The notes under the pieces were generated by a model, which made no database searches, was not told the origin of the DNA, and was given only the letters and a program-made list of their open reading frames with translations. Positions 16,201-31,848 of a stretch of 61,866 nt of DNA are shown here, piece by piece. The translations under genes were made by a program, and so were the position numbers. Position 1 is the first letter of the stretch; every line of letters begins with the position of its first letter. This DNA comes from a virus. Location of the stretch: IMG/VR virus record IMGVR_UViG_3300050120_000077, positions 1 through 61,866 of that record. One strand, 5' to 3'.

Positions 16201-19200
16201 CCGTGTCGCCGGAAACCGTCCATTGCGCCAGCACCGGGATGTACTTCGCCCGGAAGGTGGTCAGGCCGAGTTCTTCCTTGGCAAACTGCTCGACGATCTT
16301 CTCCGGAATCCACGGCATGCCGAGACCGGCATAGATTTGCGCGGGCGCCAGCGGCGCCGGCTGCGCGGCTTCCAGCGCCTCGACGTTGCGACGAAGGAGC
16401 GGATCGCGGGCGGCTTCGGCCTTCGCCAACGCCAGCTTCTTCCGGACGTTGCCGGAAAGGTAGGCTTCCTTGGTCTCCCATGTGTCCTTGGTGCCGGGCA
16501 CGCGGTAGATGCGGTCGCCCAGCGCCTCGATGGTCTCGCTCTTGCTCTTGTCGGCCAGAGCGCCGATGGCGTCGAGGTCGAGCCGTCCGCGCTGGTTGAG
16601 CACGTAGAGCGCAGCATCGTTGATCGAGTTGATCTTCGGCGGCGTCTCGCGGGTGATGACGTTCTGGCTGAACACCAGTCCCTTGGAGGCTTTGCCGCTG
16701 GCGTCGTCGTAGTGCTCGATGGCGCGCAGCCGGTAGGCTTCCTGATCGTCCATGAACGGCTCGATATTCGGCCGCTTATCGATGATGTTGTCCTTCATAT
16801 CCTCCGGATCGAAGGAGCCTTCGTCGAATTTGATACCGGCGGTCGCGGCGGCCTCGCGCGCCTCCTTGCGCGCGCGCGCGATCTCAGCCATCGGCCGGTT
16901 GGCGTCGAGCAGTTTGGTGGCATCAAAGGTGCCCTCGTTGAAATCCAGCCCCGAATAGCGGGCTTCCTCCCGCGCCTCGGCGCGCGCCGATTCCTGCTGC
17001 ACCACGCTCGGCCGGCGAAGCTGGATCTCGGCCTTGTTGATCGGGCCATATTTCCCGACAAAGGCGTCGTAGGTGACGTTGAGCTTCTTGCGGGCCTTGT
17101 CGCCAGCGTCTCGGTCGTCGTTGAGGTCGGCTGCGTATGTCTCGCGCAGAGCATCGCGGATCGGGATCAGCCCTCGGATGCGCTCGATTTGCTCGGCGCT
17201 CTTGCCGCCCTCGATGCCCTTGCCGCGGCGCGCAACGGCGACACCGGCGCCGGACTGGATCTGGCGCAGCGAGCCATCCTTGTCGACGTAATAGCTGCCC
17301 TGCTTCTTCTCGGTGTGATCGAAGTCAACCTCGGCGCGCTCGGTCGGCGTCTCTGGAGACTTCATCACATTGCGCGGCAGCTTGGCGACCGCGACCGCGA
17401 GCGCGTCTTTCAGGTCGAAGTTGTCCCACGCCTTGACGCTGTAGCGGCCCTCGTAGAGCTTGTCGGCGAAGTCACCTTTGCCCAGCACCATTTCCGGATG
17501 CTCGGCGAAGTAGCGGCTGATCTGGCCCTTGACTGGCTTGCCGTCAGGTCCAGGCAGGGACACTTCGGCGGTTTCAGTCCACGAGCGGTCAGCCGCCGTC
17601 TCGCCCGGCATCAGCTTGCGGAGCACCACGATGTCAGTGGTGACCTCGGTACCGGCGTTCTTCTTGAAGGCGTTGCCGGGGAGGCGGATGGCGCCGATGA
17701 ATTCAGCCCGGTCGGCGAGGTAGTTGCGCGCGCTGGGGTCGATCTTGTTCATCGTGCCAGCGCTGGTGACGAACATCAGCAAGCCGCCGGGGCGGACACC
17801 ATCGAGCGATTTGGCGAAGAAATAATCGTGCAGCAGGAAGCTGTGCTTCGCATACTTGCTGTCGGAGTGGATCGCGATGTCAGCGAACGGCGGGTTGCCG
17901 ATCGCCAGATCAAAGGCGTTCTCCGGAAGCGGCATGCGGGTGAAGTCGTCGCGGCGGATACCCCACTTCGGATAGAGCAGGCTGGCGATCCGGGCCGAGA
18001 CGTGATCGAGCTCGATCCCCTGGTAGGTCGATTTCTCGGCGACGTCCGGCGGCATCAGGCCGGGGAAATTGCCCACCCCCATGCCGGGCTCGAACACGCT
18101 GCCGCCCTCGAACCCGAGTTGCCGCGCGGCTTTCCACATGCCGTTGATGATGTCTTCGGAGGTATAGTGCGCGTACTGGATCGAGCGGCGCGCGGTGTCG
18201 TATTCTTCCGGCGTCAGTTCGGACTTAAGGCGGGCGCCGATGACCTCGAAGCCCTTACCGAACTCACCATCGGCATCCGGAAATGCGTTCTTGAGGCCGC
18301 CCCAGCCAACGTAGCGCGCGAGCTTCTGTTGTTCTTCGAGGGTAGCCGGTCGATCCAGTTTCTCGATGATGTTCGAGAGCGTGATGGCGTTGAGGTTGTC
18401 TTCGGCCTTGCGCTTTGGTCCACGATCCTCATCAAGCCCACCCGGATCGATGTGGAAGTTTTCGCCCTTTACTCGGCCGGCCGCTCGTTGGTCAGCGCGT
18501 TCGCTTCGTCCTGCCTCGGTGTCAGCATGTCGTCCGGAAACTCGAACATCATCGCTTTCACTTCCTCCTCCGCTTCCCTCGCTGCTTGCAAGGTCGGCTG
18601 GCCGTCCGGACCCTTCGGAGCGTCCTTCGTCAGTTCCAGAAACATCCGGTGCGCCTCGTTCGCCTTCAACTGGACGAACCGCTCCAGCTCCCCGGCCTTC
18701 TTCAAGGCTCGGTACATCTTCGGGTTCTGATCCTGCATCGCGACCAGATACGGATGACGAAATTCCATCGTTCGCCTCCTGGGCGGGTTTCAAATCTAAC
18801 AGGTCGGTCTGCTTGTGACCATCGCCAAAAAGGCCGTCATCGGCCGGTTGCTGCGCTGCGGTTGGCTTGAGCGGCTGGTCGGACTTGCGCTGGGCCAGCT
18901 CACCATCGCCGATTGCCTCGGTGCCGGGGATTGTGGACTGCGGCTTGGCGGCAGGATTGTGGAACGGGTCGCTTACCATCCTCATGAGATCGTGGCGTTG
19001 CTCGCCCGTGAGGTTGTCGTACTTCTGTTTGTTGAGCGGACCTCCGGTGATGCCGGCCATCAACTTGAATGCAAGATCGGTATCATGGGTGCGACCGTCC
19101 GCGTGCATCGGCAGCTTATGCAGCACTTCCGCCCACGTCGGCGCTTCCGCAATCTCATTGCGATGCTGCTGTTGCGCCGTGACGTAGCCCGGTTTCACCA

Positions 19201-22200
19201 TCTGCCGGATTTGCGCGTCGAACTGTTTCCAATATTCCGGCTCGGTCGCCTTTACATCGGCTGGTGTCTGCGCCAGCACCTTGCGCGCGGCACGGCCAGC
19301 AGCCAAGACGCCGTCACGGTCTCCGGCTTCAACTGCTTCCTCGATCTTATCGAGGGCGGCTTCCATCTTGCGGGAGGCGTCCTCTTTCCCCGGCGCTGGC
19401 GGCGGATTGGCTCGAATGAACTCCTTGATGAAGCCTTGTAGTACGGGATTCGGTATGTCCGACATGCCATAGCTAAGGCCGCTCTCTGTCGGGCTCGATG
19501 CACCGGAGATATAGACGACATCGCTATAAGCCGTCAGGTCGAGATATTGACCGCCGCGCTTGTTGCGAAGCTTCCACATCCAAGTGTCGCCGTTCGGCTC
19601 CGTCTCGAATTTCATGGCGCGTGGTTGGATCTGATCAACATGCGCGGCGAGAGACTGTTTGAACTTTTCAAACAGATCATCCGGCAGCTTCTTCGGATCG
19701 ATATTTTTCAGTGCATCGACCGCGCCAGCAGGCGAGCGTGGGATCGCGATGATGTCGCCACCCTGGTATCCACGCGCGCCTTTCTCGATCAGCGCGCTCA
19801 CCAGTTGATGTCGAGACCGACCTTCCGGAAATATCCCAAGGCCCTTCGCGTAGTGCTGGATGGTGTCTTCTTGGGCACCCTCGAACGATGCCTGCGGGTC
19901 CATGAAGCTATCGTAGAACTTTCGATCAGCTTCGGACCTATCGTCATCATCATCTAAACCGGCTTCTGCGCTCCCTTCACCGGCGGCAGTTTCAGGTTCG
20001 GCGCTACCAGCGGTTTCGCGTTCGGCGTCGGCGTCGGCGCGTCCGGTGTCGGACTGCTGATCGTCTTCGCGATCGACGGCGCCGGTATCCTCGGCATCTT
20101 CGCCAGTTTGGCTGCTGCTTGGAACGACGCGTGCTTGGCTGCCAGCACCGGACCGCTCCTGCTGAGATTCGGCGCGGCCTTCGTCAGCGCGTGGCTCGCT
20201 GCTATGTGCCCCTTCGCTTCCGGAGCCCAATATTTCTTTGACTTCGGGGCCATAGGCTTCCTCTGCTTGGGCGACGGTAAGGTCGCCCTGGTTGACGGCA
20301 TTCTCGATGACGGCGTACTGGAAGGCGATGCCGGGTGGCATTTCCGGGTACTCGGCGAGCAGCTCGGCCGCGCGCGCGATATCGACCGGCTTTACCTTGT
20401 CGGCCATCGGACCAAGCGCATCCTCGATGGCCTCGTGGTGCGCGGCGGTTACTTCTTCGGGTTCTTCGCGGCCTTGCGCGCCAGTATCCGGAACGCGGTC
20501 GCCATGGCTTTGCGCTTCTTCTTTTGCTCCGGCGTCCCGTTCACCTTCGCCTTGTCGTTCAGTGACGACGCCATTTCGAGGTGCTGGCTTGGCTTGAATT
20601 GCATCGGACACGTCCTTTCCGTAGGTGTCGCTCATCAGTTGCGGTGTGATGCCGTAGTCAGCGTCTTCGCTCACCATCCGCATGGCGGCTTGCTCGACGG
20701 CGTCGTCGAGCGGCAAGTTTTCGTCCGCCATGATCGCGGCGGCGCGGGTCTTCACGTCCTCGGCGAGGTGCTTGTAGTCTTCGTCCTTGTCGACGTCGGC
20801 GCGGTGATCGTCGATTGCTACCTGCCGGGCGTGCGCGCTCGATTCCTCATCGGCTTTGCGCTCGCGCTTGGTCGGGGTCGATTCCTCACCCTCGGCCTTC
20901 TTGGCGTTGCCGCGGTTGAACTCCTCGTCGATCGCATCGAGCAGATCGCGGGTTGTCGTGGTGGCGTGCTCGCTCCCGCGCAGGTATCCGGCTTCCTCGG
21001 CCGCCTCGCGCATGTCGTCCAGCTTCATGCCAGTGGGACGCACCACGCCGAAGAAGCCCTTGCGGCCGGGGATCTGCACGCGATGATCGCCGGCCAGATC
21101 GAGAGCCTTCAATTCCGGATGTGGCTCGATGCCGCCCTTGGAGGCGATGAACTGCATCAGCGTCATCGGCTCGGTGTTGGCGGCGCGGGGTTTCGCGGGC
21201 GCCTTGGCCGGCGCGGCCGCGGCTGGTTCGGCCTGGGCGATTTCGTTCGGTCCAGGCTGGCTGAAACGCTGGGTGTGATCGCCGGTAGCGAGCCAATTCT
21301 TGAACTCGTCGGGGCCGAGCGCGGTGACGGCGCCCATGCGCGGCGTGGCGTCGTCGGCATAGGAATCGCGGTAGGCGCGGACCGCCGCTTCCGGATGTTC
21401 GAAGCCGACCATGATCTTGTGCTCGTCGAAGCTATCGTTCGACGGATCGCGCTGGTCGATCATAAATACATGCGGGCTGGTCGGCTTCGGACCGATGAAG
21501 ACGTCGAGGTGGTCGCCGTCGGCGCCGACGGTCCCCTTGATCTTGCCGTAGGCGACCGGCATGCGGACTTCCCACGGCTTGCCGTCAGGATCGGTACCGC
21601 GCCGGATCTGGCCTACGCCGGTCTCGATGCTGATGCCGTTCTTGCCCGCAAGGTCGAGGTGCGGCAGCTCGAGATGTCCGTGCTGGTAATTCCCGGCCAC
21701 GGCCTGCGCCGGTGTCGGCTCCTTGACGATCTCTGACGCCTTGAGCACGTCATCGACGGTTTTTGCCACAACCGGAGCGTCGCGTTTTCCGGTCGCCGAC
21801 GGTTCCTCTGCAACCTTATCCGGAGAGGACGCTGTAGCGGTACCAGCAGTTTCGGTTGTGTCGTTGGATTCCGTCGCTTCGGCCAACCGCGACGCGCGCG
21901 CGCGCGGCGACATATCGGCGATCTCCTGTTCGGAGAATCCTGCATCGAGCAGGGTTTCGTGGTCTGTCTTGGGGGGAGTGGCGGCTTCGCCGGTGCCCGG
22001 CGGTGCGGGTGGCGGTTCATCCGGAGGCGGCGCGCGGCCGGTGTCCGGACCGGGAAGCCCGCGGTTGTCCGGCATGACTTCGCCGTCGATGGGCTCGGCA
22101 GCGGGGAGGGTGCGCTGGCGCGCTTCGCCGGCGCGGCGGATGAAATCGGCGATGTCGTCGGGCGAGGATATGTCGCTCGGCTTCGGCTTCGGGATGAAAT

Positions 22201-23413
22201 GCCCGGCCGCGCCGAGCACGCCGCCGGTGATGAGGTTGGCGATGATCCGCTTGGCGTCGGGCGAGTAGCCAGCGTCCTTGTCGTAATATTGCTGGGCGAC
22301 CTTCGTGAGCAGATATTCCTGCGCCTCGCCGACGGTCGCGAACGCCGCGCCGCCCTCGATGGCGTGTTGCGCGAGGATCGCAGCGCCCGAAGATCCGAGC
22401 TTTGCGCTGACGGCGGTGATCGGCCGCAGCACGGTACCGAGCGGCAGCGTGCCGAGCGCAGCACCGATAGCACCGCCCCAACCGGCCGCCTTCGCAGCAT
22501 CGTCGTCGGATGCGCCCTTGGCCTTGGCGGCCTCGAAGGTCGCACCTGCGGTCGACGTGCCCATGCCGGCGGCGCCGAGCGCGATAGCAGCTTCCGGACC
22601 GGCGAGCGCGCCAGCGGCGAGATATGTGGCGGCGGCACCGACACCGGATCCGATCTGGCCGCCAGCGCTCGTCTTCTCCTGATCCGTCATCGGGATCGCG
22701 TCGGCAGCCTGTTTGATGGTGGTGCCGGTCTGATACTTCGCCTGCTCTTGGATCGGCTTGGCCGCCTCGGCGTTCTGAGCCGAGAACTTGGCACGGAGCT
22801 GGTCGGATTCCGCCTGGGCGTCGCCGCCGCGCGCGATGCGCTGCAAGGCGGCATTGAAATCCATCTGCAAGCCGCGGTCGCCGATGGTTCGCATCGTCTG
22901 ACCCATCAGCTTCGCACGCTCGGATGCCGACATGGTTCCGGCGTTCGCAAGCTGGTCGATAAGCGCGGTGCCTTCCGGTGCTACGGGCTTCGTCGGAGAA
23001 AGCGCAGCGAGTCCTTGCACGCTGCTCCCGGCTTGCTCCAAGGGTGCTCGGAGCAAGCCCTTAGCACCGGCCATAATCTGGCCGCCCACGCCGAGCGGCG
23101 GCGCCGCCGGTGGCGGCACCGGCGTTCCAAAGCTGGACAGGTCATCCGTCGAGGGTTCGGGCTCGGGATCGACCGGCGTGCCGTACTTCGCCAGATCCGG
23201 CGCTTTCTCGGGTGCCTCGGGCGCTTCGGCCGGCGACGAGAAATCGACGGTCGGTACCGGCGGCGATGGTGCGATCGGTGTGAGCTTGCGCGCGAGGCGC
23301 TCGGTCAGAACACCAGCGTCATCGGAAAAATCCGGAGCATCCTGCTGGTACTGACGCAGGAGGCTATCGCGAAGTGCGGCGTTGCCATCGCCGAGCGCAT
23401 CATCGAGGGCCAT
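10238..23413 (-). CDS. giant polyvalent virion/ejection protein (4,391 aa): InPase-like + N6-adenine MTase + SF2 helicase (DarB-like) + zincin peptidase, flanked by hydrophobic segments
   Basis: Uninterrupted 13,176-nt ORF. Its ATG shares 1 nt with the upstream stop (TAATG). Motifs are listed in the sub-features. Confidence 0.9.
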   Translation of the reverse strand: MALDDALGDGNAALRDSLLRQYQQDAPDFSDDAGVLTERLARKLTPIAPSPPVPTVDFSSPAEAPEAPEKAPDLAKYGTPVDPEPEPSTDDLSSFGTPVPPPAAPPLGVGGQIMAGAKGLLRAPLEQAGSSVQGLAALSPTKPVAPEGTALIDQLANAGTMSASERAKLMGQTMRTIGDRGLQMDFNAALQRIARGGDAQAESDQLRAKFSAQNAEAAKPIQEQAKYQTGTTIKQAADAIPMTDQEKTSAGGQIGSGVGAAATYLAAGALAGPEAAIALGAAGMGTSTAGATFEAAKAKGASDDDAAKAAGWGGAIGAALGTLPLGTVLRPITAVSAKLGSSGAAILAQHAIEGGAAFATVGEAQEYLLTKVAQQYYDKDAGYSPDAKRIIANLITGGVLGAAGHFIPKPKPSDISSPDDIADFIRRAGEARQRTLPAAEPIDGEVMPDNRGLPGPDTGRAPPPDEPPPAPPGTGEAATPPKTDHETLLDAGFSEQEIADMSPRARASRLAEATESNDTTETAGTATASSPDKVAEEPSATGKRDAPVVAKTVDDVLKASEIVKEPTPAQAVAGNYQHGHLELPHLDLAGKNGISIETGVGQIRRGTDPDGKPWEVRMPVAYGKIKGTVGADGDHLDVFIGPKPTSPHVFMIDQRDPSNDSFDEHKIMVGFEHPEAAVRAYRDSYADDATPRMGAVTALGPDEFKNWLATGDHTQRFSQPGPNEIAQAEPAAAAPAKAPAKPRAANTEPMTLMQFIASKGGIEPHPELKALDLAGDHRVQIPGRKGFFGVVRPTGMKLDDMREAAEEAGYLRGSEHATTTTRDLLDAIDEEFNRGNAKKAEGEESTPTKRERKADEESSAHARQVAIDDHRADVDKDEDYKHLAEDVKTRAAAIMADENLPLDDAVEQAAMRMVSEDADYGITPQLMSDTYGKDVSDAIQAKPAPRNGVVTERQGEGERDAGAKEEAQSHGDRVPDTGAQGREEPEEVTAAHHEAIEDALGPMADKVKPVDIARAAELLAEYPEMPPGIAFQYAVIENAVNQGDLTVAQAEEAYGPEVKEILGSGSEGAHSSEPRADEGRAESQQERSGAGSQARVVPSSSQTGEDAEDTGAVDREDDQQSDTGRADADAERETAGSAEPETAAGEGSAEAGLDDDDDRSEADRKFYDSFMDPQASFEGAQEDTIQHYAKGLGIFPEGRSRHQLVSALIEKGARGYQGGDIIAIPRSPAGAVDALKNIDPKKLPDDLFEKFKQSLAAHVDQIQPRAMKFETEPNGDTWMWKLRNKRGGQYLDLTAYSDVVYISGASSPTESGLSYGMSDIPNPVLQGFIKEFIRANPPPAPGKEDASRKMEAALDKIEEAVEAGDRDGVLAAGRAARKVLAQTPADVKATEPEYWKQFDAQIRQMVKPGYVTAQQQHRNEIAEAPTWAEVLHKLPMHADGRTHDTDLAFKLMAGITGGPLNKQKYDNLTGEQRHDLMRMVSDPFHNPAAKPQSTIPGTEAIGDGELAQRKSDQPLKPTAAQQPADDGLFGDGHKQTDLLDLKPAQEANDGISSSVSGRDAGSEPEDVPSLEEGRGAGAVRPVEGERGAPDVSGTDEGRSEGSGRPADLASSEGSGGGSESDDVRVSGRHADTEAGRSERADQRAAGRVKGENFHIDPGGLDEDRGPKRKAEDNLNAITLSNIIEKLDRPATLEEQQKLARYVGWGGLKNAFPDADGEFGKGFEVIGARLKSELTPEEYDTARRSIQYAHYTSEDIINGMWKAARQLGFEGGSVFEPGMGVGNFPGLMPPDVAEKSTYQGIELDHVSARIASLLYPKWGIRRDDFTRMPLPENAFDLAIGNPPFADIAIHSDSKYAKHSFLLHDYFFAKSLDGVRPGGLLMFVTSAGTMNKIDPSARNYLADRAEFIGAIRLPGNAFKKNAGTEVTTDIVVLRKLMPGETAADRSWTETAEVSLPGPDGKPVKGQISRYFAEHPEMVLGKGDFADKLYEGRYSVKAWDNFDLKDALAVAVAKLPRNVMKSPETPTERAEVDFDHTEKKQGSYYVDKDGSLRQIQSGAGVAVARRGKGIEGGKSAEQIERIRGLIPIRDALRETYAADLNDDRDAGDKARKKLNVTYDAFVGKYGPINKAEIQLRRPSVVQQESARAEAREEARYSGLDFNEGTFDATKLLDANRPMAEIARARKEAREAAATAGIKFDEGSFDPEDMKDNIIDKRPNIEPFMDDQEAYRLRAIEHYDDASGKASKGLVFSQNVITRETPPKINSINDAALYVLNQRGRLDLDAIGALADKSKSETIEALGDRIYRVPGTKDTWETKEAYLSGNVRKKLALAKAEAARDPLLRRNVEALEAAQPAPLAPAQIYAGLGMPWIPEKIVEQFAKEELGLTTFRAKYIPVLAQWTVSGDTDSVASITTFGTSRRNATALMSDALNHITPKIYDEADDKRILNVTATQDAQDKLTTIKEKFKGWVFADDARADPLAAYYNENYNNLVVRQYDGSYLTTPGIASGWKWRPHQTRVISRIIQEGNTYMAHAVGAGKTSAMIGSGMEMRRLGLVKKPMYAIPNHMLAQFTKEFYEQYPTARIAVADDRNFHAERRKQFMANVALDDLDAVIITHTNFGMIPVSDEFADEMIGVELDRYRNALAEMPSGQDSRITRSRIEKQIERLEQRLSGKSNRRRDNVFNFDEMGVDFLFVDEAQEFRKLDFSTQMSNLKGITPEGSGKAWDLYVKTKLLEKRNPGRNLVLASGTPVTNTMAELYTVSRYLQPGELAERQLSAFDAWAGAFGEEVSELEQDAAGGYKPVARFAKFINVAELSAMVRQVMDVVTSRQLEQYVTRPKIKGGKRSMNLAEKSPALIEYQDGLAARMVAIKNRGGKPKPGDDIMLTVIGDGRHAAIDIRLVGGDVDPDYPTKLELLIDNVFNTMKATARTKFYKPREGGYDMSAPVDVGPATQMIFSNLGISAKRGLPVHDYIRAELVRRGIPRDKIALISEYKTHIAKQKLFNDMNSGKVLLMIGSTAKMGTGVNAQRRLAAIHNLDPLWYPSDDEQRNGRGLRQGNWNPEIEINDYSTKGTYDSTMWGLMEKKARFIQGFFEGDPSMREMDDLGEASQYAQAKAMTTNDPRLMRLTELKQDLERSERRKSAFESERYALKRRQAEARSTLDYYGAREVNIQQDIKQRKDLSGDNFVGTVGKSTYDKRVDFGEALLTQLDKVTTTANIGRHLTIGEISGFPLRAHVRQILTENKGAAGNDLMLKRTGDAETTVHGTSALGMARSIESILSGFDADLAYAQDRVATAEKFLRESEGKEKARFQGEPEIDALASQVRDLEAQLAKKDEPATSTELPPPSPEALAQVMPLTERGAAKAAELERLLTEAVRKMVPNIQIKFHTGRIDHIDQGGWGDVAAKYKGVVGLYRPAKQLIELSLESGNPVSTAFHEAYHAIEHLLQTARERTLMAKETPRLRRAIDNGLIGFDKATIEGMAGYEVRAVAFELYRHQREKFGKAQNLHVGVRRWYHRLTDMTNRIRNGVNGLGFQTAEDIFAKAFEGGFADRTPPLLGTPFPQQEDALASVQNPFNGPLRDSVGAAIDERLANTKQKLIEGYQNLNRPVQNLETIIEARLAGELPDSQAFYQKKRLFPGKVAAEANDFNKNLLDPMIDLLKANKIDKDQAGDILYALHAPERNREMDKINMDSMFGAPDMVLGRGSGMSNDTAQEILNRYDPAVVRAIDQRADAIRDYINNLMVNSGLESATTVAGWRQTYDHYAPLSGWEDAPEEAPPGRSPKFNVRGPEVRSAFGRKSKADNPLANLIDQAYRTIERAKKNEYLQTVDNALHELDPDDQKNFVRFDRGRPKKELDKRTGLVRTVDDSNFRSEPGAVAFKRGGNVHYLLFDNSQLADAIKRMHADGLGMLQFVINIQNKLKASWTHYSPEFLLRHFLFRYPIEGTLNSFEQKESGDHSVGRYIADSTPFLGNASKAIFASNKGVTHDNAAIAELQRYWDEMRRAGGAMMFRQMRDTSLVREHMESKLNSLTNSTWSDAKAKWQAGVEAMDTVTNALDNALRLAAYAAARKQGKTPEQAAIVARDATVDFQQSGRWKNIMSLFAPFSGVAINTGARMTSAVARSRIMRMVFGSSVLAGFLSGMFNYLVGGNDKDGIPFADKMAWWEKSLTFTLLNPFGIDKDAKDRPQPIHIPMPYNWAFPLMIGQAAAAMVFTKDPHGVRKALGAVLKSGLEALTPFGAEDNLVAQISPELTRPLVHAYTNENWNGIPIHKDPAFQRGPRSESGRVNTGDGWKWAAKGINEVTGGDRKHSGALDVYPEDLREVFSYYSGLDTAMRFGRNVTGFVANAAEGTPDKEPSRIPFARVVRGTDYDQADKSRRFERDRESKQPWTR
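10778..11119 (-). other. C-terminal hydrophobic/TM region, aa 4099-4212
   Basis: MSLFAPFSGVAINTGARMTSAV, IMRMVFGSSVLAGFLSGMFNYLVGG, NWAFPLMIGQAAAAMVF. Confidence 0.6.
12914..13261 (-). other. zincin-like metallopeptidase module, aa about 3385-3500
   Basis: HExxH motif STAFHEAYHAIEHLL (HEAYH = aa 3435-3439, nt 13097..13111). Confidence 0.6.
14234..15883 (-). other. SF2 (SNF2/DEAD-like) helicase module, aa about 2511-3060
   Basis: AHAVGAGKTS (aa 2534), FLFVDEAQEF (aa 2694), LASGTPVTN, STAKMGTGVN, QRNGRGLRQGN (aa 3046). Confidence 0.8.
17612..18463 (-). other. N6-adenine DNA methyltransferase module, aa about 1651-1934
   Basis: Motif I VFEPGMGVGNF. Motif IV LAIGNPPFADI (NPPF = aa 1840-1843, nt 17885..17896). 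Confidence 0.8.
21350..21694 (-). other. inorganic-pyrophosphatase-like (InPase) module, aa 574-688
   Basis: GNYQHGHLELPHLDLAGKNGISIETGVGQIRRGTDPDGKPWEVRMPVAYGKIKGTVGADGDHLDVFIGP. Recognised from memory as the module described in polyvalent proteins. Confidence 0.55.
22193..22666 (-). other. Gly/Ala-rich hydrophobic (glycine-zipper-like) region, aa about 250-407
   Basis: GGQIGSGVGAAATYLAAGALAGPEAAIALGAAGMG...AAGWGGAIGAALGTLPLG...ITGGVLGAAGHF. Confidence 0.6.
23117..23197 (-). other. two DL[SA]x[FY]GTPV motifs at the N-terminus of the giant protein (aa 73-81 and 91-99)
   Basis: PDLAKYGTPVDPEPEPSTDDLSSFGTPVPPP. Confidence 0.9.
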
Positions 23414-24771
23414 TAATCGTCCTCGGCGCTGGCGCTCGCTGGCACCTTATCCGGCTTCATCGGATCGGCCGGTTCGGGCTTGCTCACTGATGGTGTGGCG
23501 GACGACGACTTCGATGCTGAACCCTTGTACTGGTAGACCTTCCCGTCAGCGGGGTTGGTGTAATACTGGCCGGGCTGGAGCTTCTTGCCGATGTTCGATG
23601 ATGTGATGCCGGCCTTGCCAGCATTGACCGGATTGGCCTGCGTCATGCCGGGTTGCTTGGCGACCTCGGCCGCGGTCTGCGGATGCAAGCCAACGCCTGC
23701 AAGATGCGCGGACTGACGCTCTTGCACCGTCTGTTCATAGGCCGCCTTCGCCTTCTGCACTTCCGGATCGTTGGGGCCGTTGCCGGTTTTGAGGGCGGAC
23801 TGATACGCCGTCATCGCGCCCTTCACCAACGGATCAGCGGCAACGTTGCGCTGTGCCGCGAGATAAAGCTGCGTCGGTGAATCGTTCTTGTTCGCTACCG
23901 TCGCGTCCTTGCTGGCGGCGGCGGCCTGCTCGGATTTCAGCTTGGCAGCAAGATACGCGGTGTAGTTGGTCTTGTAGGTCGCGTCGTCACCGGCCCTCTT
24001 CGCGTTGATCGCGGCGGTGAGATACGTCTGCGCGTCCTTGGTGTCGGCATGACGCTCTTTGTTGGCGCCTTCGAGCGTGGCACCGGCGCCGGAAGTCAAT
24101 GCCTGGAATGGTGACTTGCCCTTGCTATTACCAGCCGCGGTCAGGCCGGCGCCGAGGCCGCCCAGCGTCTCATTGACGACACTGCTTTTCGGATCGATGC
24201 CGAGTGCGCGGCCGAGCGCGGTTTGGTCGCCGAGTTTGTAAGCACCGCCCGGCGCTGCTGCGCCCGGCGCCCCATCCGGAGGCGCAAAGGCGTGACCGCC
24301 GGTCGATTCATACGAATTGACCACCTTGTTCGCATCGCCAACTGAAAGCGGTCCGCCGCCTGCAGGCAGCGAGAACTTGTTGAAGCGATCCGCAGCCGTG
24401 AACGTGCCGGGAGGTGAGATCGATGTCGGCGGCGGCAGCGGTGGTGCAGCGGCGCCCGATGGCGGCTGGCCAGGCATTGGCGGCGGCAAGCCGGGGCCGT
24501 TCGGCGGCGAGCCGCCGGCTGCCATCGGATCTGTGCCTTGCGGCATCGGTGGATCGGGTGGCCCGGCGGCCGGTGTCGGATCTGGCGTTGGCGTGGTGGC
24601 AGCCGGAGTAGGTGAAGGCGGCAGCGGCGGACCATCGGCGCCGGTCTGCTGCACCGGCGGCGGTGTCATCGACGGCTGCCCTGGCATTCCGGTGTTCGGG
24701 GGTTCGCCACCGATATCGGCGGTCCCCATGTTTCCAAGGGAACCGTCCGTCAGCCAATCAAGCAGCCCCAT
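23413..24771 (-). CDS. Pro-rich virion/internal protein candidate (452 aa)
   Basis: Long ORF immediately upstream of, and coupled to, the giant gene. The N-terminal 130 aa is Pro/Gly-rich. No motif recognised. Confidence 0.65.
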   Translation of the reverse strand: MGLLDWLTDGSLGNMGTADIGGEPPNTGMPGQPSMTPPPVQQTGADGPPLPPSPTPAATTPTPDPTPAAGPPDPPMPQGTDPMAAGGSPPNGPGLPPPMPGQPPSGAAAPPLPPPTSISPPGTFTAADRFNKFSLPAGGGPLSVGDANKVVNSYESTGGHAFAPPDGAPGAAAPGGAYKLGDQTALGRALGIDPKSSVVNETLGGLGAGLTAAGNSKGKSPFQALTSGAGATLEGANKERHADTKDAQTYLTAAINAKRAGDDATYKTNYTAYLAAKLKSEQAAAASKDATVANKNDSPTQLYLAAQRNVAADPLVKGAMTAYQSALKTGNGPNDPEVQKAKAAYEQTVQERQSAHLAGVGLHPQTAAEVAKQPGMTQANPVNAGKAGITSSNIGKKLQPGQYYTNPADGKVYQYKGSASKSSSATPSVSKPEPADPMKPDKVPASASAEDD

Positions 24772-24774
24772 CGA

Positions 24775-25911
24775 TCAAGCTCCCATCGCGCGCGCGAGTG
24801 CAGTAGCGGCGCCATAGTCGACGGCCATATAGCCGCTTGGGAGCTTGTGAACGGCAGAGGGGGTGCGCTTCCGCACCTCCTGCGCCATCAGGCCGATATG
24901 TTGTCGCTGATTTGGGTCGCCCTTGTAAACAAAGCTGTAGACGTTACTCCCATCATTCAGCTCGCCGATCTTGGCGATGTCCTTCTTCGCGCGCCGATCA
25001 GAGAGGGCCAGCTTGCCCGCAGTCCCGATCGCGGAGCCCAATAGCGCATAGCCCGAGTTGTCCGGCGCGGTGGTGACGCCGGTAGTCGTGGCAGGCATCG
25101 CGGCCGCGCCGGCTGCAACGGTCTGGTTTGCCGAACCCTGCGCTGCAATCTGGCTCTGCTGCGCCTGGAGCCAATTGTTGTACTGCGCGGTGAGGTCGGC
25201 CTGACTTTGCGCGGTGTCCTGCTGAGTGAGGCTATTCGCCGTGGTCTGAGCGCCGAGCTGCTGGGTCTGGAGCGCCTGATCCGCAGTCGCGCCGCCGAGC
25301 GACCGATTAAGGGCCGTCTCATTAAAATTCGCGTTCGCAAGTTGGGTCGAGTTCTGGTTGGCGACGTCCTGGGCGCCGGCGCCGATGGCGGTGTTGAACG
25401 CCGAATTATAGGCGTTGCCGATCACGCCCTCGCGCTGGACGTTCTGATTGAAGGCGTCGTTTGAGGCCTGAATGCCCGCACGCGCGTCGCCGAAGGCTCC
25501 CGATCCGGTCGCCTGTGCATTGGTCGCAGCATTGGTCGCGGCATTCGACATGTCCATCTGCTGAAGCTGCGGAGCCAGCGCGTTCATGACGTACTGGTTC
25601 ATGTACGGCGACATTTGCGAGGCGATGGTGTTCGTGCTCACGTTCTGAGCCGGTGCGCCCGCGTAATTGTTGATGAGGCCCTGCGCGGTCGCGCCGGTGC
25701 CGTTGTTGGCAATGCCCGTCGCGGCGTCGATGGTGCCTTGCTGGTTCGGCGAGATCGCAGCCGTCAGCGGTCCCTGATATTCCTGCCCAGCGGTCGAATT
25801 GTTCAGCGTGTTCTGCGCCGTTCCGAGATTGCTAGTCGCCGCCGCCGCGACCGCCGGATTGGCGGCCGAGCTATTGGTCTGCGTCGAAGTGGTCTGATTG
25901 CCGAAGCACAT
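24775..25911 (-). CDS. fibre/spike protein with C-terminal intramolecular chaperone (peptidase S74-like) domain (378 aa)
   Basis: LSDRRAKKDIAKIGELNDGSNVYSFVYKGDPNQRQHIGLMAQEV at the C-terminus. The N-terminal 260 aa is Asn/Gln/Ala-rich and fibrous. Confidence 0.7.
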   Translation of the reverse strand: MCFGNQTTSTQTNSSAANPAVAAAATSNLGTAQNTLNNSTAGQEYQGPLTAAISPNQQGTIDAATGIANNGTGATAQGLINNYAGAPAQNVSTNTIASQMSPYMNQYVMNALAPQLQQMDMSNAATNAATNAQATGSGAFGDARAGIQASNDAFNQNVQREGVIGNAYNSAFNTAIGAGAQDVANQNSTQLANANFNETALNRSLGGATADQALQTQQLGAQTTANSLTQQDTAQSQADLTAQYNNWLQAQQSQIAAQGSANQTVAAGAAAMPATTTGVTTAPDNSGYALLGSAIGTAGKLALSDRRAKKDIAKIGELNDGSNVYSFVYKGDPNQRQHIGLMAQEVRKRTPSAVHKLPSGYMAVDYGAATALARAMGA

Positions 25912-25914
25912 CTT

Positions 25915-26463
25915 TTAGGCCCTCTGCTTGTCGATGGTGTCTTGTTCGCTGCGGGTCGAGCGCGGAAAAATCATCAACCGCTTATTGCTGCCGCGTTTCT
26001 CGCGGATCGGACCCTGCTCGATGAACTCGATTCCGGCCGCGTCCGCGATGCTATCGGCCTCCGCGATCAGCATCCGGTTGACGACGCCGTTCCGAAACTG
26101 CGGCAACACAAAATGCCAGCGGTCCACCATGAAAGAGGTCTTTGGCGCGTACCACCACGGCACATGAATAAGGCCGAGCGTACCGATCAATCGGCCGGCG
26201 CATTCCGCCATGATCGCGATCTCGAACTTGGTCACGCGGATGATCTCAAGCAGGCTATCGATCGGATCGACTGGCGCGCGCATTTGCGGCTGCGCCACGA
26301 TCAGCAAGAACTGATGGATCGCGCACACGTCCTCGTCGGTCTTGGCGTAGCGGATGGTGATCTTTTCCGCGTCAGTTTGTTCGGTTTGCTCCACCAGCTT
26401 TAAGGTCGGCGAGGAGGGTGGCGACGACGGCGACGACGTTGGCGAGGGTGGGACTTGTGACAT
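25915..26463 (-). CDS. GNAT-like acetyltransferase candidate (182 aa from ATG 26463; GTG 26394 is an alternative start)
   Basis: IGTLGLIHV...VLPQFRNGVVNRMLIAEADSIA resembles the GNAT acetyl-CoA loop. The 5' end overlaps 26372..26623 out of frame. Confidence 0.35.
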   Translation of the reverse strand: MSQVPPSPTSSPSSPPSSPTLKLVEQTEQTDAEKITIRYAKTDEDVCAIHQFLLIVAQPQMRAPVDPIDSLLEIIRVTKFEIAIMAECAGRLIGTLGLIHVPWWYAPKTSFMVDRWHFVLPQFRNGVVNRMLIAEADSIADAAGIEFIEQGPIREKRGSNKRLMIFPRSTRSEQDTIDKQRA

Positions 26464-26623
26464 TGAGTATCCTTGTGGGAGTTGGGGCTGCGCCGATCAG
26501 CGTGTAACCGCCGCCGATATCGGTGATGTCGCCCGATTGACTGGCTTCGACGATCTGATTGAACATGGCTTGGAGGGTCGGCTCGATGCCGGGCGGCATC
26601 GGCTGCTTGTAGAGTTTCCTCAA
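26372..26623 (-). CDS. hypothetical protein (83 aa)
   Basis: ATGA-type coupling with 26620..28410. No motif recognised. Confidence 0.5.
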   Translation of the reverse strand: MRKLYKQPMPPGIEPTLQAMFNQIVEASQSGDITDIGGGYTLIGAAPTPTRILNVTSPTLANVVAVVATLLADLKAGGANRTN

Positions 26624-28410
26624 CTGCGGTCTCCCATGGTTTTCACAAAGGCGATCGGGAGCCCGAGGCGGACATACGAGCCGAGCGAACTGGCGCCCAT
26701 CATCCAGCCGATGTATCGGCCACCGATCCGCATATCGACGGTGCCGCTGTCGATGGCGGTAATGATCTCGGTCTCGCTCTCAAGAGCGGCGGAATCGTTG
26801 AGGCGATCCCATGCGGTCATGGTGCTGGTGATGTCGCCGACCTGATCGAAGAAGTCGGGCACGATATATTCAACGTCGTAGTTGTACTTTCCGCCCTTGC
26901 TCAAGGCGTAAGGCGCAAGCGTCATCGAATACGGAAGCACCTCACCGTCAGCGTCATTGGTGTTCTCGTGCCGATAGATCAGGTCCGTAACGGCGTCGCC
27001 CATGAATGGCGTGGTGTCGCCCTGGGTGAAGTGAGAACCGCCACAACGGCCCCAATAAAGAGGAGCCCAGCATTGTTGCGAAATCGAATAGATCACGCCA
27101 AGCGTCGGGTTGGTCTGCCCTTGGATGGTGACGAAGAACCAGACTTCGTTGAACTTCGGGTTATAGATCGCGATACAGGTGTACCCGAAACTGATGTCGA
27201 TCTGATCGAACAGCCACTTGCGGATGTCCTCGACATTCATCATCGGCGTAACGGTGCCGTTATACGTCCAGAATGTATCTTGGCCTTGCCAGTAGGCGAT
27301 GCCGCCAACGGTCACAGCCGCATTCGGACCGATCAAACCGCAGTCTTTGGCGATCATGCTGGAATTGTAGACGAAGGTCGCGCCGGTATATTGGAACAGG
27401 TAAACCGCCGCATCCGTCCACACCAAGCTCACGAAATCTGCGAGCACGCGGCCCGCCACAAGCTTGGTGCCTTCTGTCAACGTGCGGATGTTCGCGGTGT
27501 TGCTGACGCTCGGCGTCCAGTCGGAGAGCGTGCCTTGCGATGGCCACGCGACCTGCATTCCGGCGAGGAGCGCGAATGGAAACCGTTCTGGTGTAACAAA
27601 CAGAGCGCGACAATTGGTTGGAGCTGAGGCGTCTACAATCGTGGCCCGTCCCCACGGCTGCACCTCGGTCGGATCGAATGAATAGACGCCGCCACCATTA
27701 TAGGTCGCAACCAGCAATTGGCCGAAGTGATCGAGAGACCAGACGCGGGGTTCTATCAATATCGTCGATGATGATCGCGCTGTGCCGTAAGTCCCGAGAC
27801 CGTACCCGCCGACACCGTAGCCATATCCGAAGGTGCCAATTTCGACGCCGGCTGGGATTTCATATTGGAACGTGACCGCACTTCCGCCGCCGGTCGCTCC
27901 GGATGTGGCCGGCGAGGTGAAAGCAAAAATATAATGGTTGGCATCGGTCACGGCCAACACGGTAAATGTGCCGTTCGGTGTGATGCCGCCAACTGCGGTC
28001 GATCCCGCAAGGTGAATGATATCGGTCGGGTTGAGGCCGTGCGAGGTCTGCGCTACCGAGACGTTTGGTGATCCGGTCGTAGTCGTGAATGGATCGGTGC
28101 CGAGCGTGCCTGATGAAGCCAGCGGCGTGATGTCATTCTGCACCAAGCTCGTGTCGTAGACATAGAGCTTGATGTAGGTTCCGGCCGCCAGATATTGATT
28201 GAAGTCGTTATCCCGCCAAGCGTGCAGGGTGCGCGGCGTCCCAAATGTCGCGGTGACAAAGCCTTTTATCCAGCCGCCGATCTTCTGTGGAAGGCGCTGG
28301 ACGAAGCGCATGTTGATGATCTCGGTCCACCGTCCCTCAATCACGCGCTCGCTGTCGGTCTTGACGACGCCGGGCGGCGGCGCAATCGGGACTTCATTCA
28401 GCTCAGACAT
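26620..28410 (-). CDS. tail structural protein (596 aa)
   Basis: Large ORF in the tail module. The N-terminus RWTEIINMRFVQRLPQKIGGW resembles N-termini of podophage tail proteins I recall. Unverified. Confidence 0.6.
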   Translation of the reverse strand: MSELNEVPIAPPPGVVKTDSERVIEGRWTEIINMRFVQRLPQKIGGWIKGFVTATFGTPRTLHAWRDNDFNQYLAAGTYIKLYVYDTSLVQNDITPLASSGTLGTDPFTTTTGSPNVSVAQTSHGLNPTDIIHLAGSTAVGGITPNGTFTVLAVTDANHYIFAFTSPATSGATGGGSAVTFQYEIPAGVEIGTFGYGYGVGGYGLGTYGTARSSSTILIEPRVWSLDHFGQLLVATYNGGGVYSFDPTEVQPWGRATIVDASAPTNCRALFVTPERFPFALLAGMQVAWPSQGTLSDWTPSVSNTANIRTLTEGTKLVAGRVLADFVSLVWTDAAVYLFQYTGATFVYNSSMIAKDCGLIGPNAAVTVGGIAYWQGQDTFWTYNGTVTPMMNVEDIRKWLFDQIDISFGYTCIAIYNPKFNEVWFFVTIQGQTNPTLGVIYSISQQCWAPLYWGRCGGSHFTQGDTTPFMGDAVTDLIYRHENTNDADGEVLPYSMTLAPYALSKGGKYNYDVEYIVPDFFDQVGDITSTMTAWDRLNDSAALESETEIITAIDSGTVDMRIGGRYIGWMMGASSLGSYVRLGLPIAFVKTMGDRS

Positions 28411-28428
28411 GGATGCTTTCGAGGGTCA

Positions 28429-28467
28429 CTGCGCCGCTGCTCGACATAGTGGCAAGCAGCGGCGCAG
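28429..28467 (-). promoter_or_regulatory. 13-bp perfect GC-rich stem-loop without U-tract
   Basis: CTGCGCCGCTGCT (28429-28441) pairs with AGCAGCGGCGCAG (28455-28467), leaving a 13-nt loop. It lies between the fibre gene and the next tail gene. Confidence 0.5.
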
Positions 28468-28505
28468 ATCGCCGCGGCGGGTTGGACGCCGTCGCGGTTG
28501 GCATA

Positions 28506-29888
28506 TCAGCGCTTGATCAGAACGTTGCGGACGCGAGTGGGCTGGACGTTGTTGTGCGCACCTCCGGTACCGGCACTCGCGTTGTTGATCGTGATGCCCG
28601 TGGTGGCGGGCGAGGCGGTGCCAAAGGAAGATGTTAATGAACCACTCCCCCATGAACCAGCCGCAGCGGGATTGCCTTGGTCTCTTGCGTTGGTCTGATG
28701 GCCGTGCCCCGGATCGGTCAGCGAATTCGCGTGCACATGCGCTGGGATTTGGGACGTCGTTAGTGTGACATTCTGCGCCCCGGAATTTTGCGTGTTGAGC
28801 TGCAGGCCGTTGACGCCAGATCCGGCCGTCGTCAGATTTGTAAGCGCCGTGCCGCCCATGTTGGTGCGGCCCGCAGCTACGGTGCCGCGCGCATCCGGAA
28901 GCGTGAAGGTAGTCGAGCCGTCGCCATTCCCAAATGGGAAGGCGGTCACCAGCCCGCCGGCCGCAGTGTTGGTTGCCGAAATCGACATCGTGATTTGCGA
29001 CGCGCTGTCCACCGAAACGATGGCGGCTCCCGTCGCCATGCCAATGCCTTCGAGGACCGACCCTTCAAGGCCAAGATTACGCAAATCGTGGGTGACGTTA
29101 GTCAATGTCACGGTGCCGTGGGTGTCGGCATTGAAGCCTGCGGTGATCGCCGCCATCAGGTTGGCGTCGGTGGACCGCGCAACGGTCTGTCCGAACTCAA
29201 AATACCAGCCTGTCGGGGCGATGATCGCAGCGCTGTTGACTTCGGTTCCCGGCGGCACAATCGGAACGTTGCCGGCAGTGATCGAAAGCCCGGTCGCGAT
29301 ATTGACGCCCGTCGCGGAGAACGTCGCAATATCGACACCGCCGATGGTCAACGCGGCCACTCCGGCGGATACCCAACGCAATCCGGTCGAGGGCTCGGCC
29401 GCGAACGAAACCCCAGGCAGCGCGATAGTCCCGCTGGCGCCGAGCCACTGCACATCGCGCAGCGATGTCGAGAGGCCGACGAATATGTTGTTCGCGCCAT
29501 CGCAATAAACCAGCGCGGTACCGCCTTGAGGGATCACGGCCCCAGCAGTGCCACTCGTGGTCTTGAATTTCAGCGCAAACGCGCCAGTGCAATCGTTGGC
29601 GACGAGCCATAGTTTCGAGACGTCTGGCACCGTAACGGTCTGATCTGACGCGAGCGTTCCGGCGAGTACCACAACGGCCTGCGGCAGCGGATGTGGCCCG
29701 GCCGGCGGGACCACTTCATCCATCGCCAGATTGCCACCGGTCAGAGCATCGTTGGAATAGACGCCAGCGATCGAGGTGTCGAGCAGTTGCAGCGCGCCCT
29801 CATTGAGGTTGAGACCCCAAGCATTGTTGTTGTTGCCGGTGCCTTGAAGAATGGCACCGAGGCTGGTGGAAAAGGTATCGGCGGCCAT
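28506..29888 (-). CDS. tail fibre with C-terminal phage tail-collar domain (460 aa)
   Basis: GDGSTTFTLPDARGTVAAGRTNMGG and GGAHNNVQPTRVRNVLIKR. Confidence 0.75.
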   Translation of the reverse strand: MAADTFSTSLGAILQGTGNNNNAWGLNLNEGALQLLDTSIAGVYSNDALTGGNLAMDEVVPPAGPHPLPQAVVVLAGTLASDQTVTVPDVSKLWLVANDCTGAFALKFKTTSGTAGAVIPQGGTALVYCDGANNIFVGLSTSLRDVQWLGASGTIALPGVSFAAEPSTGLRWVSAGVAALTIGGVDIATFSATGVNIATGLSITAGNVPIVPPGTEVNSAAIIAPTGWYFEFGQTVARSTDANLMAAITAGFNADTHGTVTLTNVTHDLRNLGLEGSVLEGIGMATGAAIVSVDSASQITMSISATNTAAGGLVTAFPFGNGDGSTTFTLPDARGTVAAGRTNMGGTALTNLTTAGSGVNGLQLNTQNSGAQNVTLTTSQIPAHVHANSLTDPGHGHQTNARDQGNPAAAGSWGSGSLTSSFGTASPATTGITINNASAGTGGAHNNVQPTRVRNVLIKR

Positions 29889-30796
29889 TAGTAGTGTCCC
29901 CCTGGCGTCTCGGTGTAGAGATCAGCGCCGCGATACCCGAGATCGGATTCCGCCTGGATGCTCTGGATCATTTGCTGCATCGCTGTGACGTGCTTGGTGT
30001 ACTCGTTGTCGTCTTTCATGAAGGCGGCAGCGGAGGCCATGCCCGCGACTCGAACGAGTTGCGGATAGCGAGTGGTGAGGAAATTGGTCGGATTTCTCAC
30101 TGAGAGCAGCGGCGGCGACTTGTAGATCATCAACCGAAATTGCGTCGCGGTACCGAACGCGCCGTCAAATTGCAGGTGCTCGTCCCACACTGCCCATTGC
30201 AGCGGTTGACCCGAGATCAGGTTGTTGGCCGTGTAGGTGGCCGCCGATCCGCCGCCGGTGATGCCGCCGGCTGTGGCTTCCCCATCGGTCACGGTAAACT
30301 GGAACGTGTCGGCGTCGATAACGTTCGTCACCAGAGACGTGCCGTTGATCGTCACGCCATCGACGTCTGCGGCCCCTGCAATTGTGATATCGGAGCTTTG
30401 GTTGAGGCCATGGTTCACCTCAATGGCGGTGATGATGCCGGAGCCTTGCGCGCCGGTGGTGAATGGATCGGTTCCGAACGATCCGGATATCGAATCGTCG
30501 AACGTGCGCCCGTCAGTGACGGTCGATTCCGTACGCTGATAGTATCGATTGCCGAGATTGTCCCTCAGATCCCCGATGGGATCGAGGTAGCGGGCGGGCA
30601 GGGCGATCTTGGCGTTGCCAACCGGGAGCCCGAATACCCACTGGAAGCGCATCTCGCGCACCCGCAGCATCGAGTAAATCAGGGATTGCAGCTCGTCTAC
30701 GACGGAGCCGACGTCAACTTTTGAATACCCGACCCAATTCAAAAGTGAGCCCGCCGTCCCTTTCGGGGCGACGAGCGTGGTGTAGTTCATTGCCAT
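29888..30796 (-). CDS. tail/adaptor structural protein (302 aa)
   Basis: ATG 30796 (or 30790) lies just after the upstream stop at 30807. Position in the tail module. No motif recognised. Confidence 0.6.
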   Translation of the reverse strand: MAMNYTTLVAPKGTAGSLLNWVGYSKVDVGSVVDELQSLIYSMLRVREMRFQWVFGLPVGNAKIALPARYLDPIGDLRDNLGNRYYQRTESTVTDGRTFDDSISGSFGTDPFTTGAQGSGIITAIEVNHGLNQSSDITIAGAADVDGVTINGTSLVTNVIDADTFQFTVTDGEATAGGITGGGSAATYTANNLISGQPLQWAVWDEHLQFDGAFGTATQFRLMIYKSPPLLSVRNPTNFLTTRYPQLVRVAGMASAAAFMKDDNEYTKHVTAMQQMIQSIQAESDLGYRGADLYTETPGGHY

Positions 30797-30806
30797 GATG
30801 GTGCGG

Positions 30807-31316: not shown

Positions 31317-31319
31317 AGC

Positions 31320-31592: not shown

Positions 31593-31595
31593 GAC

Positions 31596-31820: not shown

Positions 31821-31848
31821 CGGCTTTGCCTCTTGGTTCGAGAACGAA

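Follow-up and report, generated by a model that had tools for sequence, protein, structure and literature searches.

A repeated short linear motif shared by a lytic transglycosylase and a giant polyvalent protein of a temperate podovirus, a putative docking tag

In phage T7, gp16 carries a lytic transglycosylase (SLT) domain in residues 1-156 and, in residues 157-228, an extended 'molecular tape' which cements the gp15 subunits into a periplasmic tunnel, and the remainder of the protein enters the membrane and the cytoplasm (PMC8954989). In phage P1, the first 30 residues of DarB, an internal virion protein of 250 kDa, are enough to bring a reporter into the capsid, and no consensus has been found among the N-termini of the Dar proteins (PMC9024508). 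Little is understood in general of the way in which giant polyvalent or ejection proteins enter phage heads and are put in order for ejection. Here we describe a sequence-defined tag, the nonapeptide DL[SA]x[FY]GTPV, which is repeated on two different putative cargo proteins (three in some lineages) and occurs in at least five variants that change in step between its carriers. It was found in virus record IMGVR_UViG_3300050120_000077, a complete JGI/IMG contig of 61.9 kb (61,866 nucleotides, hereafter the window) with 61.8% G+C, in an SLT protein and in a giant protein encoded 21 kb away from it.

The two carriers and the motif copies, numbered by amino acid (aa), are the following.

10238..23413, minus strand: giant polyvalent protein, 4391 aa, last gene of the structural module (open reading frame and translation)
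44876..45610, minus strand: SLT protein, 244 aa (open reading frame and translation)
23171..23197, minus strand: copy G1, DLAKYGTPV, giant aa 73-81 (within PDLAKYGTPV, aa 72-81)
23117..23143, minus strand: copy G2, DLSSFGTPV, giant aa 91-99 (within DDLSSFGTPV, aa 90-99)
45044..45070, minus strand: copy S1, DLSAYGTPV, SLT aa 181-189 (within ADLSAYGTPV)
44954..44980, minus strand: copy S2, DLSSFGTPV, SLT aa 211-219 (within PDLSSFGTPV)
44882..44908, minus strand: copy S3, DLAQFGTPV, SLT aa 235-243 (within PDLAQFGTPVA), followed by one Ala and the stop codon

The window holds five copies, two in the giant and three in the tail of the SLT protein, and every coordinate and sequence given for them in a preliminary description of this DNA was confirmed, including the copy at the very C-terminus of the SLT protein. 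The degenerate DNA pattern of the motif has five matches, whereas none turned up in any of 100 dinucleotide-preserving shuffles (mean 0.00, maximum 0), so the motif is not due to chance. A six-frame regular-expression scan of the window returned just these five copies, and relaxing the pattern to [DE][LIVM]xx[FYW]G[TS]P added none, which agrees with the earlier statement that no other open reading frame of the window contains the motif. The consensus in this phage is [AP]-[PD]-D-L-[SA]-x-[FY]-G-T-P-V, embedded in Pro/Ala/Glu linkers of low model confidence. The two DLSSFGTPV copies, one in each protein, have two of their nine codons in common, and the codon strings quoted for them previously were correct.

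Related loci were gathered with the SLT protein, the giant N-terminus, p596 and TerL as queries. Among the best 120 SLT homologues, which range from 88% down to 46% identity, the Gly of the motif lies 3-7 residues from the C-terminus in all but one (119/120), and the consensus is [AP]-P-D-[LF]-S-x-F-G-[TVE]-[PA]-[VA]-(x)-COOH. These homologues contain 315 motif instances separated by linkers that cannot be aligned; conservation is confined to D, [LF], S, [FY], G and P/V of the motif and does not extend to the linkers, which is the pattern that defines a short linear motif (SLiM), and purifying selection acts on the motif peptide. For the giant, an exhaustive profile-free search with aa 1-1200 gave 150 representatives of 50%-identity clusters, about 22 of which carry D[LF][SA]x[FYL]G in their first ~120 residues, one to three times and as a rule twice. 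The motif-bearing giants have a common N-terminal layout, in which a conserved segment of ~50 aa is followed by two motifs in a Pro/Ala/Glu linker and then by a helical, Gly/Ala-rich domain of ~300 aa.

Beyond these two families the motif is very scarce. No third family with at least two copies was found in about 210 related loci, and a looser screen for single copies in the first 139 loci gave a single stray match that lies on the opposite strand. Across all of IMG/VR, the DNA of the strict motif is matched by 14 stretches, of which six lie in this family and one in a new giant (L220), the rest being chance matches in non-coding frames. The L220 giant belongs to a lineage with 54% G+C and carries its motif doublet at aa 11-42; its flank holds no informative annotation. 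The preliminary description had named two outcomes that would speak against a functional motif, namely a similar frequency in unrelated proteins of GC-rich genomes and absence from orthologues of both proteins in related phages; the number of strict stretches in IMG/VR is incompatible with the former, and the motif is present in orthologues of both proteins.

The strongest line of evidence comes from genomes in which both carriers could be compared. The SLT and giant loci were paired by contig name, and both proteins were read in 12 contigs (3300012944_000054, a near-duplicate of 3300015245_000006, was left out of the count). The motif variants are distributed as follows.

DLSxFGTPV (FG type) in both proteins: the window, UViG_2936028420_000001, Ga0209489_100006, ERR11671141_13620
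DF...[FY]G in both proteins: 3300036827_000193
LDF[ST]xQ[AV] in both proteins: 3300015245_000006, 3300031616_000004
PSSYGEPV in both proteins: 3300044833_000023
LD[LF]SxFE[PE]V in both proteins: 3300020577_002141, 3300033068_001264, 3300020577_001858
mixed: 3300017766_002535 (L143)

The SLT tail and the giant N-terminus thus have a motif variant in common in 11 of the 12 contigs. When each giant copy is matched to the best SLT copy of its own genome the score is 27.9, as compared with 17.1 ± 2.3 when genome labels are shuffled; none of 100000 shuffles reaches the observed match, and if every lineage is represented by a single genome it is reached in 2 of 720 permutations. In comparisons within genomes, identical residues are encoded by identical codons in 42% of cases, and 42% is also the value expected for the consensus motif DLSSFGTPV from codon usage in the giant gene, so the two motifs have changed in parallel and not by gene conversion. 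The earlier claim that conservation is at the level of the peptide and not the result of a recent DNA duplication is borne out by the same figures. Such parallel change would reflect selection on two ligands to keep matching something. The preliminary description had interpreted the motif as a docking peptide for a common partner, and the common-partner part of that proposal gains support, co-variation within genomes being what two ligands that bind one partner would be expected to show.

The SLT protein is made up of a compact domain and a tail.

45116..45610, minus strand: lytic transglycosylase (SLT) domain, aa 1-165 (AlphaFold2, Foldseek, PHROG)
44879..45115, minus strand: SLT tail, aa 166-244, rich in Pro/Ala/Glu, with the three motif copies (AlphaFold2)

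The domain is modelled by AlphaFold2 with a predicted local distance difference test (pLDDT) score of 83-98. The top Foldseek matches of the model are phiKZ gp144 (3bkh, E = 4e-5), MltE, Slt and MltF, a profile search of the PDB gave gp144 (7e-6) together with MltC and Slt, and the protein falls into a PHROG transglycosylase family, its homologues carrying PF01464. By sequence and predicted structure, the 244-aa protein can be assigned as a lytic transglycosylase. Its Glu33 aligns with the Glu of the family's conserved Glu-Ser pair. At this place (45509..45511, minus strand) the window reads E33-N34 (AERENAKF), as against E-S in more than 90% of the homologues (AERESxFNP), the latter pair being typical of family-1 lytic transglycosylases. 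The tail has no regular secondary structure in the AlphaFold2 model, and its pLDDT per 10-residue block (48, 61, 50, 58, 62, 53, 72, 66) shows small rises at the motifs, a profile consistent with a disordered tail whose motifs become ordered only on a partner. Several relatives (P0005, P0018, P0035, P0039, P0048, P0079, P0081, P0088) have an N-terminal extension of the SLT protein starting with MDDxKFRRSKN[IV]EDRR, which in L001 (9720..10004) forms a separate 94-aa gene with a 4-base overlap with the SLT start; the 86-aa gene beside the SLT gene of the window (45699..45959) is unlike the 94-aa gene at that place in L001.

The N-terminus of the giant likewise combines a low-confidence segment with a folded domain.

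23108..23413, minus strand: giant leader, aa 1-102 (alignment of giant N-termini; AlphaFold2)
22199..23101, minus strand: giant N-terminal helical domain (N-domain), aa 105-405 (AlphaFold2)

The leader starts with a conserved segment (MALDD...RLARKL), which is followed by the Pro/Ala/Glu linker with the two motif copies. Its pLDDT of 30-44, without a rise over the motifs, is consistent with disorder. Within aa 26-65 (23218..23338, minus strand) the leader also contains two degenerate stretches that resemble the motif, one at aa 26-35 (APDFSDDAGV) and one at aa 55-65 (TVDFSSPAEAP), and a [VI]DF element 10-15 residues ahead of the first full copy recurs in other leaders of class A (VDFNVAPDEP, VDFDKVLQKP, IDFTPPKPQ). 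The N-domain is rich in Gly and Ala, with hydrophobic helices and an invariant GE-Q inside a VGEAQE stretch, and is modelled mostly at pLDDT 75-95, with a dip to ~45 near aa 331-348; no structural relative was found by Foldseek in the PDB below E = 0.08, nor any sequence match. Docking of the motifs in cis on this domain was considered and is unsupported, the motifs showing no rise in pLDDT in a model built on a shallow alignment. Further along the chain, Pfam identifies InPase (7e-41) and LPD38 (7e-20), and Eco57I (E 9e-5) and Helicase_C (E 0.007) are matched below Pfam's own cut-off; at its source the protein is annotated as 'N12 class adenine-specific DNA methylase'.

In other giants with a like N-terminal layout, unrelated doubled motifs stand in the same position (L029/L051 9800..9907; L056; L099 18160..; L047; P0158; P0183; P0209; P0261). 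These doublets are ADDWEDVP twice, DDWRDIQP/DDWHDIAP, MFEDLIPSA/LFDDLIPAS, FDLSGLKPLD/FDVSGLKPYD and GLPEGFVLD/GLPPGFELD (GLPxGFxLD), and triple-copy alternatives, PPWEMFG or PPWEMAKQK three times, occur as well. It seems that the principle of a doubled N-terminal motif is general and that its sequence is specific to the lineage. One contig of 475,698 bp, Ga0209489_100006 (L040, L041), contains the same giant N-terminus twice, 63 kb apart (at 154135 and 217091), which suggests two tandem prophage copies or an assembly repeat.

In five giants (P0200, P0211, P0259, P0261, P0209) the SLT domain is found at the N-terminus of the giant itself, with the lineage's own motif on both of its flanks. In P0211 the order is PLDFSSFGTPVD, SLT domain, ALDFSQFGTPVG and PLDFTQQAVKP, and in P0261 it is PPWQMFG, SLT domain, PPWEMFGGTPV and KPWEMFGGAPV. 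These fusions tie the SLT protein and the giant together functionally, and, because the motif is kept in them, it is not merely a tether between the two proteins but addresses something else. A third carrier is found in some lineages: an extra, unrelated domain of ~125 aa, which lies between motif copies in certain SLT tails (P0009, P0013, P0060, P0111), also exists as a standalone protein, and one such protein (P0280) ends in EVDLSQFGLKQ-COOH, the terminal SLT motif of a related lineage. In the relative L226 (Ga0642623_02403, 58 kb), separate proteins take the place of the giant (6484..11975), namely a 1171-aa protein with a Hydrolase_2 cell-wall hydrolase domain, the 157-aa small-domain protein P0279, which begins EPVDHDPF/LPIDHDPF, and a 369-aa InPase protein.

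Following the tail genes of the window, the giant is the last of three genes in a row, the other two being the following.

24775..25911, minus strand: 378-aa protein, annotated 'DNA ejection protein' (PHROG 4287, 2e-26), with a C-terminal Peptidase_S74 chaperone domain (Pfam PF13884)
23413..24771, minus strand: 452-aa protein, directly upstream of the giant (translation)

The 452-aa protein is conserved at its N-terminus (MGLLDWLTD) and in its C-terminal half, and it contains a long Pro-rich region. It has no Pfam, PHROG or PDB match, fold and sequence searches gave nothing significant, and an IMG/VR locus search with this protein as the lone query returned no relatives. The start MGLLD[WLIT][LIF] is common to its homologues (L074, L084) and to a 582-aa protein in the same position in L226 (4739..6487), and standalone proteins of the ~125-aa domain also begin with MGLLD (P0287 MGLLDLFNPP, P0289 MGLLDIFSP); this start may be a second shared terminal tag. 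The 378-aa protein begins MCFGNQ, as does the 343-aa protein at the equivalent position in L226, so that an N-terminus with Cys-2 is conserved.

Comparison of the giants with the rest of their genomes shows that the leader and the body of the protein have different histories. The similarity of the leader (the 70 residues ahead of the first motif) correlates with that of the 452-aa protein (r 0.87), p169 and TerL (0.79), the portal (0.71), the major capsid protein (MCP; 0.63) and the SLT protein (0.57), whereas it is low with the giant's own N-domain (0.15) and InPase (0.34). The N-domain types cut across the motif classes (A vs B 70%, B vs C 74-75%, A vs B-like 68%; overall 67-75%). Since the leader tracks the phage backbone and the N-domain does not, a recombination boundary lies just after the motifs; the leader and motif belong to the backbone, and what is exchanged is the rest of the giant. 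Motif similarity itself shows partial correlations with p169 (0.54), p128 (0.48), the SLT domain (0.45), MCP (0.40), TerL (0.40), the portal (0.36) and the C-terminal half of the 452-aa protein (0.31), and no significant partial correlation with the giant's own domains (N-domain 0.03, InPase 0.16).

We put at about 0.5 the probability that the motif is a short linear docking peptide by which both proteins bind one shared, phage-encoded partner that belongs to the ejection machinery or to the internal proteins. The lytic transglycosylase, encoded on its own, would together with the N-terminus of the gp16-like giant represent a split T7 gp16, and the tandem copies (two or three, 9-30 residues apart) could clamp both proteins on neighbouring subunits of an oligomeric partner. 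The likeliest partner would be the 452-aa protein, by its position a candidate gp15 analogue or middle ejection protein, or else a portal-proximal component of the core. As an outcome, the enzyme that cuts the wall would be incorporated together with the front end of the giant, and the two would also leave and assemble at the envelope together; uptake into the procapsid core could rely on these contacts as well.

Several observations weigh against such docking or against its details. Contig 3300017766_002535 is discordant, its SLT protein ending in PDFSQFGVPA and its giant carrying PDFSAQAIEP. In genomes of class E (L152/L153/L154) the terminal SLT copy is of the FG type (LDFSQFGEV-COOH) and it is the internal copy that matches the giant, so the terminal and internal copies may not be equivalent and may have different roles. 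The split cargo proteins of L226 were found to have no tag in common. A partial-Mantel analysis singled out no partner, as most backbone genes follow the motif class alike, and the correlation of the 452-aa protein with the leader (r = 0.87) is partly explained by adjacency. In the PDB profile search the SLT domain showed no specific relation in sequence to T7 gp16 other than membership of the SLT superfamily, the PDB sequence search detected no similarity of the 452-aa protein to gp15, and among GenBank phages there is no cultured relative and no proteome.

The same evidence must be held against other explanations. One of them, close to the interpretation in the preliminary description, is a pure capsid-targeting signal, which, like the T4 capsid targeting sequence, the N-terminal signal of P1 DarB or the cargo-loading peptides of encapsulins, would act during procapsid assembly only, by binding the scaffold, the inner capsid surface or the portal, and have no role after ejection. 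The placement of the copies close to a terminus after flexible linkers, their presence on different cargoes, the precedent of the N-terminal 30 residues of DarB (PMC9024508) and the positive partial correlations with most head and packaging genes, with none significant for the giant's own domains, all fit this proposal. Yet the MCPs of different motif classes are 80-88% identical, which gives little scope for large motif changes, neither a prohead protease nor a recognisable scaffold protein was identified in the head module, and the constant flanking of the SLT domain by the tag in the fused giants is left unexplained; we consider the pure form of this proposal unlikely, and note that it overlaps with docking to a shared phage partner rather than excluding it. 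A partner on the host side is another candidate. The translocation domains of colicins carry Tol- and porin-binding epitopes, and by the same logic the tails might bind a periplasmic or envelope protein of the host after ejection and so anchor the SLT protein and the leading end of the giant at the site of entry. Both carriers should act at or cross the envelope, their motifs are multivalent and lie in low-confidence regions, and the FG-type motif occurs in lineages of 54% and 62% GC alike, as expected for a widely conserved host target. A host protein would hardly account, however, for at least five motif classes among close relatives (p596 60-79% identical, MCP 76-96%), for unrelated doubled motifs in the same place in other giants (DDWEDVP, PPWEMFG, GLPxGFxLD) or for the inheritance of leader and motif with the phage backbone, and such mimicry appears distinctly improbable.

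Alternatively, the receptor could be the SLT domain itself, the giant motifs recruiting the free SLT protein and the SLT tail binding either in cis, as autoinhibition in the capsid, or in trans, forming chains or a condensate. A weak hint in this direction is given by the AlphaFold2 models, in which the three motif blocks of the SLT chain reach pLDDT 61, 62 and 72 against 48-58 for the linkers and the same motifs in the giant chain, which is without an SLT domain, stay at ~40; the rises are small, however, and the underlying alignments differ in depth (44 vs 9 sequences). The motifs always flank the SLT domain when fused to it and the similarity of the SLT domain tracks the motif class (partial r = 0.45), but a similar correlation is seen for every backbone gene and the tag is also present on a standalone non-SLT domain (P0280), and we think a self-binding SLT protein very unlikely. 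That the motif is a processing site for a maturation protease, or a functionless relic of fission of an SLT-giant fusion within a repeat array, is barely credible. Fused and split architectures do coexist, so fission or fusion has happened, but a copy 3-4 residues from the C-terminus makes a poor cleavage site and the head module contains no protease that could be found, while a relic would not be expected to be conserved down to 46% identity as its linkers randomise, nor to vary in step between two genes that lie 21 kb from each other and show no gene conversion.

A broader proposal can be put forward, as a tentative possibility: the leader, the doubled motif and the matching SLT tail may constitute a lineage-specific address system for loading arbitrary cargo into the core or ejection channel of podoviruses, and hence an adaptor for the horizontal movement of multi-enzyme anti-defence cassettes, because lineages swap the body of the giant and keep the address with their backbone. 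Such an address would be a portable tag for the delivery of foreign proteins into bacteria. The tag is cleanly separated from the exchangeable part of the giant, and it points to a possible handle for engineered protein delivery by phages.

Judged from its gene content, the phage is a temperate podovirus of the SU10 portal/adaptor type; the genes identified include an integrase, ERF recombinase, DUF2303, tRNA-Gly, TerL, portal, major capsid protein, SU10-type adaptor and tail proteins. Its relatives are metagenomic contigs of ~63 kb, with complete genomes of this size in Logan, ENA and JGI, and prophages, including one in Bradyrhizobium sp. JR1.7; among GenBank phages there is no near-DNA match to positions 23000..45700 of the window and none to the giant N-terminus, and the SLT and portal matches are distant only. 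The remaining features of interest are the following.

49416..50789, plus strand: tyrosine integrase, 457 aa
46659..46733, minus strand: tRNA-Gly(TCC)
9235..10227, minus strand: endolysin with a C-terminal membrane anchor (PHROG 181, 6.6e-42)
8570..9070, minus strand: Rz-like spanin (PHROG 456, 2e-5)

The tRNA-Gly(TCC) and the integrase sit between the SLT/terminase region and the early genes, and the tRNA may mark the attachment site. The location of the SLT gene just upstream of the terminase genes had suggested that it encodes the endolysin. This assignment was rejected: a lysis cassette composed of a separate endolysin, a transmembrane (TM) protein and the Rz-like spanin lies directly downstream of the giant, so that the SLT protein is not the lysis enzyme, and its neighbour proteins, on reading of their sequences, have no TM segments.

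Among known systems, the giant fits the description of a phage-type polyvalent protein, with many effector domains in one chain, InPase and LPD38 among them, and a gene located with those of the virion (PMC5512222); the passages of Iyer et al. 2017 (PMC5512222) that were searched mention no N-terminal repeated motif, leader or link to a separate SLT protein. T4-type capsid targeting sequences are found at the extreme N-terminus and are cleaved by the prohead protease, while in this phage the SLT protein has its copies at the C-terminal end, those of the giant begin only at aa 72, and no prohead protease was detected in the head module. DarB combines methylase and helicase. The giant is likewise an adenine methylase plus helicase by its annotation and matches, with a backbone-linked N-terminal leader; it differs from DarB, as from T4 IPIII, in that a clear consensus is present on two proteins, in repeated copies, with one of the carriers tagged at the C-terminus. 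The cargo-loading peptides of encapsulins are short conserved terminal peptides which follow flexible linkers, are common to unrelated cargo enzymes and address the interior of an HK97-fold shell. A terminal tag after a linker on different cargoes is also found here (SLT protein, giant and one standalone protein of the ~125-aa domain), but its consensus is another one, the shell is a DNA-filled phage capsid, and the 80-88% identity of MCP across motif classes is mildly unfavourable to shell binding of the encapsulin type.

The 'molecular tape' of T7 gp16 offers an analogy that is, in our judgement, equal to or better than capsid targeting. As modelled by AlphaFold2 and matched by Foldseek, the SLT protein (165 + 79 aa) has a similar layout of an SLT domain plus an extended segment, and it would resemble a free-standing N-terminal part of gp16, the giant its C-terminal part enlarged with effector domains, and the fused relatives the complete protein. 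The order of T7 gp14, gp15 and gp16 is also mirrored by the genes for the 378-aa protein, the 452-aa protein and the giant, which follow the tail genes. In T7, however, a single polypeptide unites what is here encoded by separate genes 21 kb apart and joined only in P0200, P0211, P0259, P0261 and P0209, and the tape of the present phage is a repeated, defined 9-residue motif which is repeated on the giant as well. No earlier description of the motif or of the boundary between leader and cargo was found in the literature searched, and the motif can be placed as a new member of the targeting or tape-peptide kind known from phage internal proteins, one with an unusually clear sequence definition.

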